DNA from: Chiloscyllium plagiosum
Taxonomy: Eukaryota
Length of the DNA: 32,690 bases
Assembly (NCBI RefSeq): GCF_004010195.1
Contig: NC_057755.1
Location: forward strand, 4,296,255-4,328,944
Reading direction: 5' to 3'
Part shown: in pieces, positions 18,967-26,970 of the stretch
How the letters are laid out: the number at the start of each line of letters is the position of its first letter
Position numbering within the stretch: position 1 is the stretch's first letter
Translations under genes and position numbers: made by a program
The notes under the pieces: model-generated
The model's database searches: none
What the model saw: the letters and a program-made list of their open reading frames with translations, nothing else
Told to the model about the DNA's origin: nothing

Positions 18967-19620
18967 AGAGGATCTAAAACTTGAATTTAGGCTGTTGTCT
19001 CAAGCAACAAGTATCTGCAGATTTTTATTAAACACAAATTGATTTTTCAATTTGAAATAACACAACAAAATGGATGCAAGCAATAATTTGACTCTGTGAA
19101 CCTGAACTGATGCTTTGCTAATTTGGTTGAATTCAGAGATAAAAGAGAACAATGGATTTCTCATAAGACAGTGATGTGTATTCTAACTAACATTGAACTG
19201 CAACTATGACGTGGATATTTACATTAATTAAGACCCCTTTCCCAGGGAATATCATTGGACTAGCCTGTTGTCAATCATGTCACCTTATTACAGTTGATTG
19301 GACTTTTCTTGTAATTAAGAACCATTTCCCAAGAAATATCACTGGATTAATCTGCTGGAAATCATGTCATCTTATCAAATGTGATTGGTCTTTTCTTGTA
19401 ATTAAGGTTGCACGACCTCTTAAAAACAGACAAAGAATCTCTAAGATTCCAAGGAAATTGCACAACTTCACCACAGAACACCAAAGCTTTAGCCTTTGTG
19501 TTGCTGAACAGAATTGCATCAAGGTGCCTTAGTTCAAGAAACTAATGACACGTTTCTTTTTCCAAACTGCATCCCATTGAATATTTTGACCGATTACAAA
19601 ACAAGAGGCCTCTCTTGAGG
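18967..19620 (+). repeat. 5' LTR (alignable part; true 3' end uncertain)
   Basis: Colinear with 26316-26970, from gaggatcta…ttgaatt…ggctgttgtc to caagagg(g)cct. Contains two ~88-bp U3 repeats with ATTGG boxes. Confidence 0.85.
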
Positions 19621-20439
19621 TGTCTGGATCTTTATTTTTGTGCCATGTTTCATTTCAGCTCAGACAGGTCGTTAACAGCGGTGGAAGAGTTAAATGTCTT
19701 TCACTATTGAGTGTTGAGTCATTCGCCCGGCCAGATGCGAACATTTTAAGAGCGTTTGGTTTTCCTCTCATTCAAGTAGTGTCTGACATGACCCCTCGCT
19801 GTTTATGTTCCAGTCCAGCTCAAAAGCATCGCTGTTAACAAGGGTTGGTTCTGGGGGATTATGGGGTTCGTGGGTGGTGGTGGGGAGACATTAACTGAGG
19901 TTCGCGTTGCTTTTGCTCTCAGGACAGTGGTTTCCGAAAATTGCTGAACTGCGAGGAGAGTGTTGAACTCTGAATCTCCCAAACTTCGTTCATTTCCTGG
20001 TTGAAAAAGAAGCTCCAATCTTTGGATCTTCAGCAGTTTTTGGAGGCGGGTGGACTCAACAGTTTTAATACAGGCAGTTAACTATTACAGAGGCAGGAGG
20101 CCCCCCGATATTTGTGGCTATTACTGGGGCAGTTGACCCCGATATTTAACACAGGTGGTTGATGTTAATTTAAAGTATATTGACTAAGATTTATCTGCTT
20201 ATAATAGATAGAAAGGAGGCCTGGAACTTAATAATAAGTTAATAACTAATAATAATACCTTAAAAAATCAATATTAAGTTGATTAATAAAAGAAAATATT
20301 GCGGTATTTTATAAATAAATGTTAATTTGGTTTTTAAAAAGAGTTTGTGAAATAAATTAACGTTTGTGGAATTCTGATTGGTGAGTTATTTTTTAATCAG
20401 TTGCTATAAAACTGAAGTAATTTTAAAATGGGTAATTGC

Positions 20440-21590
20440 ATGGACAGAACAGATGATCCATCCTCAACGTTAGTGACATTATGTGAAAAAGCTCGAGATC
20501 CATGACTGTTTTGAATCTGATTTGCATTTTGAAAATTTAACATGATTTATTTTAATGTTAAGGATCCTTCAGTGATTATGAAATCAAATATTATCTCCTG
20601 TTCAGTTTACAGGTCATGACTGTCCTTGCCCCACGTCACCCCAGCTCCAGCTTCCATCTTAGCAACGCTCTCATGACCTATCCTACCTGCCGATCTTCCA
20701 TTCCACCTATCAACTCCACCCTCCTCTCTGACCTATCACCTTCATCCCCACCCCCATTCACCATTGTACTCTTTGCAACCTTTTTCCACCCTCCATTCTG
20801 ACCATCTCCACCCCCATTCACCAAAAATCCTCTAATCTACTTTCTCCCCACGCCCAGCCCCCTCTCATCGATCTCTCCACCATGCAGGCACCCTGCTTCT
20901 ATTCCTGAGGAAGGGCTTTTGCCTGAAACAATGATTTTCCTGCTTCTTTGGTGCTGCCTGACCTGCTGTGCTTTAATCTAGACTCTGGTTTCCAGCATCT
21001 GCAGCGCTTGTTTTTACCATGACTGCCCTACTGTCAGTTTCTAACTAATACCTTTTATCCTTACGAGAAAGTCAACCTTATTCGATTTCAAATCAGCAAG
21101 ACAACATTATACCATTTTTTGTTTCAGACTCGCTTGTTTCCACTTAATTTGAAGTCTGCTCTTTTTTATTGGTGATCACTGGGAAGGACAGTTGTAGTCT
21201 TATTGAGGGAGTCCGCTCCCTCAATGACTATTGAAGTTTCAGTTCAATATTAGATTGTGATAAATCATCGAACAAAATTAGAACCCGATGGTTAATATCT
21301 ACGTCTTTGGATTCAGCCATTATTCATGCATTAGAAGTTTGCTTTTTCATTTGAATAGACAAAACCTTTTGAGGCAGCTTCTGTTATTTCACGACCTTTA
21401 TCATTGTAAATATGCAACGACTGGTCAGGACCAATCTTGAACTTTTTGGGTAATTATAGTGGATATCAGTGTTGGGAACCGTGTACATTTTACGTTTGAA
21501 ATATTAAATGCTGAACAAATGAATTTACAATTTATATTGATGACTGAAAGAAAATAACATGCTGCATGTTACTCAGATATATATTGTAAA
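20440..21590 (+). pseudogene. Degenerate unknown reading frame inside the ERV (ORF A), split by a Penelope-type insertion
   Basis: Reconstructed: MDRTDDPSSTLVTLCEK(A/fs)LEIHDCFESDLHFENLT*FILMLRILQ*L*NQILSPVQFTGHDC|PYCQFLTNTFYPYEKVNLIRF…. It has many stops and needs small frame adjustments. I see no gag similarity. Confidence 0.4.
20623..21017 (+). mobile_element. Penelope-type 3' terminal fragment with target-site duplication
   Basis: Similar to 10670-10935. Flanked by catgactg at 20615-20622 and 21018-21025. Confidence 0.8.
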
Positions 21591-24479: not shown

Positions 24480-26266
24480 GTGGAAGAGGAGAGATAATAT
24501 AGATCGAACTTGCCCGGTTGTGTGGACTTGCCATTGCCAGCTTTGGAGCACAAGAAGGGACAGTTTACTTGTGCGATCCTGAGCAACCAGAGACTGTGTA
24601 CCATCTCTGCCAGGAAGATTTCCTCGTGTGCCGAGAGACTGAATGTTACCAATAACGACTAATGCAGTGGTCACCTGCATCAAAAAGATTGACCAGTTCA
24701 TTTACAGCACAAATCTAAATGGTCTTTACCATCTAAAGGTGTTGTGTGCCAGTTTAATTTCATTTGCACTATGGGCATCCCTGGTAAGCCATGTCCCCTT
24801 TCAGATAGATCATGCAGTAAAAGAGGACAGGTGGGATGCGATCTTTCACTAACAATTTGTTTCTCGAAACTCATAATAACATATTTGGAGAGGATGAAGT
24901 TACGCCTTTACTTCAGCAATAGAAAGCCTGAACTCTTTTATCCTTCCAAATCCTAACATGGGAGTATCGAATAGTTCTAAAGTATTTACAGGATTATGGA
25001 CATCCTCCAATAAATCCGCAATACCCTATCCAAATTGCTGCAATAGTAAGGGATGGGGGTGCACGGATTGTAGTGTCCCTATGTAAAATTGCCTAAAATT
25101 ATCCCCTGTGATATGCTTAAATGAATCAGTTGTCACTGTTTCCCTGAAGGACCCCACATCCCTTCAGGAGGATCTTGTCTCTATTACCTCTAATATTCAA
25201 ACTCTTTGTGGGGTGTTTTACCACAACCAACTTCATTATGATACACCTAATTGCACTAATATTTTCCCCGTTATTGGATGGGTAGAACCATTCTGCGAAG
25301 TCGACCACGTTTCTTATCAAGAGACCCACCTCATTCGACTGAATGATTTCCAGCCTTTATGGTCGGAACCATACTATGTAATCAAGGATTACCCAGGTAC
25401 CTCAGGAAGTCACAAAGATAGGCTCGCTTCTTATTAGGAAGGTCACTCCATTATCTATACTTAACCTGGATATTATTATTCAGTTCTCGTAAGGCATCTT
25501 GTCCTGAATATAGCAAGTACTCCACATGTTGTAGCTGTAGAAGCATCATTTCCAACTCCTGTTCCCTGTCCAATTACCTGGCACCGAGATTCAAATTCCC
25601 GTGTTAAACTTTCAGTTTCTTCTGACTTTTGTGCAGAATGGAAGGATCCAAAGCTTCTATCAAATAGCAAAACTCACTCATTAACATATGCAGCACTCAG
25701 TGTTCTTTCTGTTAGAGGGGCTTCAGGGGTTATTAATCATCAAAACATTTGTGGACCCACAATCTCATGAAATGAGACAACTGCTGCCTAATAGAAATAA
25801 GGGTCGTGCATTCAGAATTGTGCCGATTTACCCAACAAAACCGCTATGCTCTCGATTACATTATTGTGAAGGAAGATGGCGTTTGCATCATAGTCAAAGG
25901 AAAGTGTATCATGGGGGTCACTAACCTTATCGAAAACATTATTGGACAAATAGGTATCATCCGCACTTCTGTCAACCAAATGAATGAAGGTGCAGGGTGG
26001 GGAGATTGGGGTTTTGGTTTATGGTACAAAGGGCTTATCAATATGGCGATGTATGCTGCTATTGTTCATTTGCTCATTTTGTTAGTATTGCTATTGATAA
26101 GTGTATTATTGCTAAAATATTAATTTATATTGACAACATTGGTTGCACCCAGAAAATGCTAATTCTCCACTTTGATGATGATGAGGAAGCATCATCGCCT
26201 GTCCCTGATTCCTCTTCGGAGGAAGAGAAAGGATTGCAGTCTTTCACTGCCATCCAATTGGATTAA
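24480..26266 (+). pseudogene. env: Retroviral envelope (env) pseudogene
   Basis: Cys-containing SU remnants, CTDC, a degenerate furin site RVKL, the ISD QQNRYALDYIIVKEDGVC followed by C-x6-C, a Trp-rich membrane-proximal region, a hydrophobic TM and an acidic tail. Many stops and frameshifts. The start coordinate is approximate. Confidence 0.85.
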
Positions 26267-26315
26267 TTTGGTCCATGCCTTTATGGTGTGGTCATAGAAT
26301 GACCAACGCAGGGAA

Positions 26316-26970
26316 TGAGGATCTATAATTTGAATTCGGCTGTTGTCAGATGCAACAAGTATATGTAGATTTTTATTAACTACGAAATGGCTTTTCGATT
26401 TAAAATAACACAACATAATGGCAGAAAGTCAGAACTTGGCTCTGTGAACTTGTGCTGCTGCTTTGTTGAGTTAAGCTAAATAGAAGATAAGTGATTATAA
26501 TGGATTTTCATAATATGAATTATAAGACAGTGATTTCGTATTTGAGGTAAACTTGAACTAGTAAACATGCGTATAACAAACTGTTTCCCCTGAAATATCA
26601 TTGGATTAGTCTGTCGACAATCATGTCACTATATTACAGTTGATTGGACTTTTCTGCTAATTCAGATCCTTTTCCCAGGAAATATCATTGGATTAACCTG
26701 CTGTAAATCATGTCACCTTATTAGATATCATTGGTATTTTCTTGAATTCAGGCTGTACTATCTATAAAAAACATAAATAATGTGTAATTGTCAAATGTAT
26801 TTGCACTATTTCTCTACGAAGCACAGAAACTTTGAACCTCCGCGTTGCTTGGCAAATATACCCCAGGCTACTTCTATTTATTAATTTATTGAACGGGTAA
26901 CCTTGCTTTAAACAGATTGTACTCCTAGTCATTCTGTTGACGAGTCCTAAAACCAAGAGGGCCTGTATCG
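26316..26970 (+). repeat. 3' LTR (truncated by CR1)
   Basis: Starts TGAGGATC after the purine tract agggaa. Has the same ~88-bp tandem repeats, and TATAAAA at ~26763. Confidence 0.85.

Follow-up and report, generated by a model that had tools for sequence, protein, structure and literature searches.

An env-bearing class I endogenous retrovirus copy with a probably eroded or swapped gag-pol interior in Chiloscyllium plagiosum

The window analysed here, 32,690 nucleotides of DNA from the shark Chiloscyllium plagiosum (RefSeq assembly GCF_004010195.1, contig NC_057755.1, positions 4,296,255 to 4,328,944 of the forward strand), contains an old, dead copy of an env-bearing class I (gamma/epsilon-like) endogenous retrovirus (ERV), bounded by two long terminal repeats (LTRs). 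On balance we favour the view that this copy belongs to a multi-copy, epsilon-like ERV family that was non-autonomous, having lost protease and reverse transcriptase (RT), and in which the rest of gag-pol was eroded or swapped while env stayed in frame for longer. The unreadable middle of the element looks like worn-out viral sequence and not like new cargo genes. The initial annotation, made from the sequence alone, had proposed a non-autonomous, env-bearing lineage that moved its own accessory genes. The first part of that proposal holds up, in that neither RT nor the integrase core can be detected, the 5' interior lacks the length for gag plus protease-RT and the internal segments are multi-copy, but the accessory genes do not, having neither a clear coding signal nor a homologue.

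The missing domains were sought with frameshift-aware profiles in 25 domain windows, scored against shuffled sequence, with natural retrovirus genomes as references, and by tblastn with 262 reference open reading frames (ORFs). With the epsilon-weighted profile three of 12 windows are positive, all of them RNase H or the integrase tail. In the remaining class I pol windows, which cover protease, RT, the integrase zinc finger and the integrase core, z is 0.0 or lower throughout (11 of 11), in agreement with the absence previously noted by eye, and no foamy or delta window exceeds z 1.9. A profile made without the epsilon references gives 96–148 bits in the RT and integrase windows of the intact reference L036 and 14–17 bits, the null level, in those of the shark element; since intact L036 is detected so strongly, the absence of a readable RT and integrase core is well supported. 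From length and layout, we take the epsilon references L036, L029 and L034 to be WDSV and WEHV. All five gag windows give z 0.3 or lower, in a test with almost no power for gag: in intact L036 the profile made without the epsilon references yields just 15–28 bits for matrix and capsid and 48 bits for nucleocapsid. The remaining tblastn matches in the interior are proline-rich matches to a retroposon insertion described below.

Two pieces of pol survive, and both had been recognised by eye. The RNase H core, broken by two frameshifts and one stop in 41 codons, stands out from shuffled sequence with z 7.9–18 in the frameshift-aware profiles; the class I profile gives 7.9, against 0.1 for the foamy and −0.9 for the delta profile. 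It is placed by tblastn at 22875–23000, with L034, L029 and L036 as the best references (36–40% over ~42 aa). Pfam missed RNase H in all six windows aimed there, so that its silence elsewhere in the element is weak evidence. Anchored global alignment barely sees the N-terminal half of RNase H (z 0.6–1.9) and misses its C-terminal tail; erosion has brought the interior to the edge of what references this distant can detect.

The integrase C-terminal tail is the sole Pfam match among 30 frame windows read with X at the breaks (MLVIN_C, E 6.7e-6; its 26.1 bits fall short of the 29.2 cut-off). Its frameshift-aware profile z is 18.3, and 18–21 across profiles; it matches 2m9u in the PDB with E 0.01, is also placed by tblastn, with epsilon references among the best matches, and found no match in a protein search. 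Its three stops in 47 codons compare with ~0.6 expected at the env rate (6 in 456), a hand estimate of p ~0.025 that is weakened by stop-prone codons. A frame overlapping the tail is open for 120 codons (24220–24582), and of 13 reference genomes, 11 have an env frame that opens ahead of the end of pol, between −82 and +122 nt from the WxGP motif. This arrangement suggests that the integrase tail travels with env, and makes the explanation already offered for its retention, an env splice acceptor in the 3' end of pol, a reasonable one. The sole perfect splice-donor-like word in the interior (AG/GTRAGT) lies at 24218–24225, near the end of the segment that we call region X, and the 120-codon frame starts there.

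Env, which had been described as a full-length remnant, is recognisable as such. One frame is held over 24898–25770, and that of the transmembrane subunit (TM) is open over 25776–26123; on the cheapest path the remnant has ~9 stops and 2 frameshifts. The immunosuppressive-type motif, cysteine loop and membrane anchor of a gamma-type TM are all counted as present, the cysteine loop in degenerate form. The TM ORF matches Pfam TLV_coat with E 0.0035, below the cut-off, and tblastn finds a gamma-type env TM at 25812–26087 (E 1e-5). TM gave no match among longer proteins, TM and a reference pol gave none among viral contigs, exact protein look-ups were empty, and the ORF of the surface subunit (SU) gave no usable match in Atlas. 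In the one RNA run sampled, 2% of which was read, depth over env is below 2, too little to be informative.

Only env carries a clear coding signal. A codon-composition test, in which the minus strand reached z 2.6 as noise, gives z 4.0 for SU and 2.9 for TM, against 0.9–1.0 for the segment called region A, −0.6 for region X and −0.3 for RNase H. In a minimal-break test env needs 1.86 breaks in every 100 codons, compared with 3.56 when shuffled, and none of 100 shuffles does as well. The corresponding figures are 3.39 against 4.24 for region A (p 0.07, a value equally reached by the left flank), 4.14 against 4.50 for region X (p 0.29) and 2.30 against 3.20 for RNase H (p 0.17). With z ~1 and p 0.07–0.19 over all its coding tests, region A is not confirmed as the ORF ('ORF A') that it had been called; region X shows no signal, nor does the gap between region A and RNase H. 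As the parts of one copy age alike after insertion and env is the better preserved, the interior may already have been dead while env was in frame.

The two LTRs, recorded earlier, are delimited by direct repeats, in which 18987–19398 pairs with 26335–26744, and by matching inverted termini. They are near-equal in length, with identical termini, and agree at 461 of 622 aligned positions (74%; Kimura two-parameter distance 0.32). The element had been thought to end at 26970; the LTR is there, but its true end lies ~15 nt further on. The paired LTRs, inverted termini and purine tract of a class I ERV, the tract also having been seen before, are thus all present (Table 1). A short inverted repeat at 26285–26305 lies just 5' of the purine tract. 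The best matches to the 18-mer primer-binding sites of the references, 11–12 of 18, are at chance level; a candidate tRNA-His-like primer site gained no support from this matching. ARAGORN found no tRNA and Rfam gave no match.

Table 1. Features of the element, in window coordinates.
Feature	Coordinates	Strand	Remarks
5' LTR	18967..19634	+	668 nt; 87-nt tandem repeat with CCAAT-box-like words
Leader	19635..20427	+	multi-copy
Met-Gly-Asn frame start, gag-like position	20428..20614	+	broken after 25 codons
Non-LTR retroposon fragment, secondary	20615..21025	.	403 nt; 8-bp target-site duplication 20615–20622 / 21018–21025
Region A ('ORF A' and unassigned kb)	21018..22586	+	multi-copy; weak or no coding signal; no homologue
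RNase H relic	22587..23175	+	alignable core 22879–23000; best matches epsilon-type pol
Region X, integrase slot	23176..24343	+	multi-copy; without coding signal, integrase match or homologue
Env remnant	24335..26266	+	~640 codons; 5' boundary approximate
Integrase C-terminal tail	24344..24484	+	WxGP motif; stopped three times within 47 codons
Purine-rich tract	26305..26315	+	9/11 purines; abuts 3' LTR
3' LTR	26316..26985	+	670 nt; TATA-like word at 26763

The 5' interior opens with a Met-Gly-Asn frame, as does the gag of L036; its match to the gag profile is not significant. Next to it lies a 403-nt piece (20615–21017), absent from the initial annotation, that resembles other repeats within the window, is enclosed by an 8-bp duplication, reaches a depth in the hundreds of thousands in the contig data given below and is skipped in one related contig (joint 20614>21018). 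These properties mark it as a later retroposon insertion, and the contig that lacks it joins the leader directly to region A. With the insertion subtracted, ~1,756 nt separate the Met-Gly-Asn start from the beginning of RNase H (near 22587), so that region A and 20428–20614 together are gag-sized; the gag of L036 has 583 codons (1,749 nt), and its stretch from protease to RNase H takes up ~1,890 nt. The 5' interior is therefore short of room for both gag and protease-RT, which supports a non-autonomous element. By position and length, the ~1.9 kb gap would correspond to protease-RT; region X is close to integrase size, and the element may be read as a class I provirus minus the protease-RT segment.

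Several candidate features of region A were rejected. A CUB-like stretch near 21450, seen by eye, has no Pfam match, and neither has a zinc-knuckle-like stretch near 22410, for which a local nucleocapsid test gives p 0.55 and no plus frame contains a CCHC motif with three of its four ligands. Protease-RT anchored to 21018–22587 with the epsilon profile gives z 1.6–1.8 (p 0.03–0.05); this comes from a set of 10 tests, each run in four ways, and was not accepted. One frame of region A found no match among short proteins, and a 50-aa ORF within it falls only into unnamed Atlas clusters (0.90–0.92, recognition 1905), below the level of trust.

No homologue of the interior was found in Pfam, NCBIfam, PHROGs or the PDB, searched with single frames of frameshifted sequence, and one frame of region X has no match among 1.84 billion representatives. 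The accessory ORFs of L036 find nothing above noise (best z 3.4–3.9, similar to unrelated ORFs). An SGNH-like 'FGDS' word noticed by eye near 23700 has no Pfam match and was set aside. No identifiable ORF other than gag, pol or env was found in the interior, where frameshifts limit all searches, and positive evidence for accessory genes was not found.

Contigs from DNA runs of three organisms (X2, X13 and X19) were aligned to the element at 80% likeness. The runs contain 8–29% of sampled element words, which indicates that relatives of this stretch are common to several species. Over 21537–26307 the depth is 343–1595 in X2, 597–3089 in X13 and 312–1037 in X19, against 30–343 in the left flank; every interior bin is covered at env-like depth in all three, and depth is even across the border between region X and env. 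Near-identical, presumably orthologous contigs reach depths of 43–70 in X2 and X13, and the data suggest ~10–20 related copies, a summed depth being no copy number. Among the 40 of 3,019 variant-site rows listed, the interior has 2–37 contigs per site (18 sites), the integrase tail and env 5–31 (9 sites) and the left flank 0–5 (5 sites). Contigs of 82–86% identity occur in the leader and regions A and X, and one of 84% from X13 (23058–23352) bridges the border between RNase H and region X. Since all of them are multi-copy at env-like depth in three organisms, the interior segments are not one-off insertions, contrary to the possibility, raised at the outset, that they are later arrivals found in this copy only. 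Joints in related contigs at 22900>23101, 21526>22112, 21064>21226 and 24993>23232 point to further interior deletions or rearrangements, and such joints suggest several structural variants in the family.

These observations can be accommodated in the following scheme. An ordinary class I provirus would have lost ~1.9 kb spanning protease and RT; what was left of gag, RNase H and integrase would then probably have drifted as non-coding spacer, or been partly swapped for unrelated sequence, during rounds of helper-dependent copying. Its RNA would probably, though with little to spare in our confidence, have been packaged and reverse-transcribed by helper Gag-Pol, as the consulted text of the source describes for ETn, recKoRV and the bovine D-type elements (PMC10924933). 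The integrase tail probably survived through its overlap with the 5' end of env, and env itself was probably retained, conceivably under selection, as a source of envelope for mixed particles. After insertion this copy would have decayed and received the retroposon.

A number of observations sit uneasily with this scheme. The LTR pair looks older than the env stop count suggests, with four env stops seen where 9.2 are expected at the decay derived from the LTRs and 4.6 at half that decay; LTR identity is also patchy, ranging from 59 to 87% between 100-nt blocks (p 5e-5), with a peak over the 87-nt repeats. No clean target-site duplication was found, the flanks sharing no clear 4–6 bp repeat. 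From the TDS of RNase H to WxGP there are 485 codons, compared with 407–438 in 14 references, so that region X is ~50 codons too long for an integrase slot, and its GC content is 37% against 45% for RNase H; a swap of region X for other sequence is therefore possible. When alignments are anchored, integrase in region X scores z −0.8 to 1.0 and gag in region A 0.0–1.3, and it is by length and position that the two may be identified as eroded integrase and gag. The raw break rate of RNase H (2.30) is close to that of env (1.86), and the case for its additional erosion accordingly depends on aligning profiles to distant references. A helper element was not identified. Among the 24 of 189,332 pieces listed, no paralogous contig bridges region X to the integrase tail or region A to RNase H; other copies may share the whole layout, bridging contigs being listed for some borders only.

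Some of these difficulties would be met by a locus-specific chimera, in which an older 5' half (LTR, leader, region A, RNase H and region X) recombined after insertion with a younger 3' half (integrase tail, env and LTR). The low and block-heterogeneous LTR identity, the lack of a clear target-site duplication, the lack of a listed paralogous contig across region X and the integrase tail, and an env that looks younger than the LTR pair would all follow. We nevertheless consider such a chimera unlikely: in all three organisms the border between region X and env is crossed at even depth, the LTRs are matched in length and termini, the integrase frame within the env-bearing half itself has three stops, and the spacing from RNase H to WxGP is near colinear. 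A provirus of the ordinary autonomous kind, whose decay and loss of protease-RT came only once it had inserted, would account for the colinear order of gag slot, RNase H, integrase slot, integrase tail and env, would equally be expected to have a multi-copy interior, and gains from the limited power of references that fail to detect the flanks of RNase H. Decay after insertion should, however, strike all parts alike, whereas the integrase tail retains 40 of 70 bits and env its long frames while the better-conserved integrase core gives 14–17 of 96–148 bits, and we regard this history as improbable.

Equally improbable in our judgement is a helper-dependent vector lineage in which gag and pol were replaced by accessory or captured genes of its own, regions A and X, carried along with env. 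Both regions are multi-copy and lack a match to any retroviral profile, region A reads through slightly more easily than its shuffles, region X is AT-rich and ends in the perfect splice-donor-like word at 24220, and capture of host mRNA is documented, in the consulted text of the source, for crocodilian ERVs (PMC4299795). Set against this, region X has z −0.6 and p 0.29 and region A z ~1 where env of the same copy reaches z 3–4, the p value of region A is matched by the left flank, the searches of the protein and domain databases, including one frame each of region X and region A, returned nothing, and the segment lengths fit gag and integrase. Least credence goes to a more specific version, an 'envelope donor' satellite with a selected env and one or two accessory genes, the obligate partner of an env-less Gag-Pol supplier. 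We therefore retain the non-autonomous family with an eroded or swapped gag-pol as the preferred interpretation.

Elsewhere in the window an inverted duplication of ~4.7 kb (1–4710 and 8785–13548, 87–98% complementary in pieces) surrounds an assembly gap (N run 4711–5210) and probably represents two opposed repeat copies or an assembly artefact. Perfect two-copy tandem repeats at 32322–32549 (114 nt) and 5513–5588 (38 nt) are possibly assembly duplications.

Defective ERV families usually shed env, and a polymerase-less family in which env stayed in frame would preserve, as a fossil, an instance of proviruses dividing labour among themselves; the envelope-donor version, if true, would amount to a natural two-component retrovirus. 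As it stands, the element adds one more unannotated non-autonomous family to the poorly catalogued ERVs of cartilaginous fish, with a close structural precedent in the koala element PhER, and provides no evidence that new genes are involved. The literature searched contained no description of this family, subscription papers and Repbase lying outside its scope.

Comparison with the epsilonretroviruses (L036, L029 and L034) shows likeness in pol, these being the best RNase H matches and among the best integrase-tail matches, and in the Met-Gly-Asn start at a gag-like position. The TM of the shark element, however, matches gamma-type env better, and the accessory ORFs of L036 have no counterpart above noise. 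The avian EAV-HP elements, which are Alpharetrovirus-related, have likewise lost pol and retained env, but also retain a readable gag, which is unproven in the shark element.

[quoted passage not shown] These have pieces of env or none, whereas the shark element keeps the whole of env and lacks an identified helper partner. [quoted passage not shown] In one env group of the zebrafish, the majority are reported to lack RT (PMC8672886). The crocodilian families CrocERV29 (KIT-ligand) and CrocERV31 (nectin3) are, in the consulted text, old ERV families that amplified with a non-retroviral interior; what they carry is a host ORF that can be identified and is under purifying selection, such as was not found in the shark element (PMC4299795).

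A close match in layout is PhER, the Phascolarctos endogenous retroelement of the koala. In the consulted text of its two reports it is an 8-kb LTR element with ~30–40 full-length copies and no intact coding region except potentially env, which is also the only retroviral similarity noted there (PMC5696478, PMC6112702). PhER, as far as that text describes it, and the shark element are alike in being ~8 kb long and LTR-bounded, with gag and pol not intact and env as the recognisable region. The likeness noted is one of layout, and the host of PhER is a marsupial; in the shark element, moreover, the RNase H core and the integrase tail are visible, and env is full-length with a measurable coding signal.

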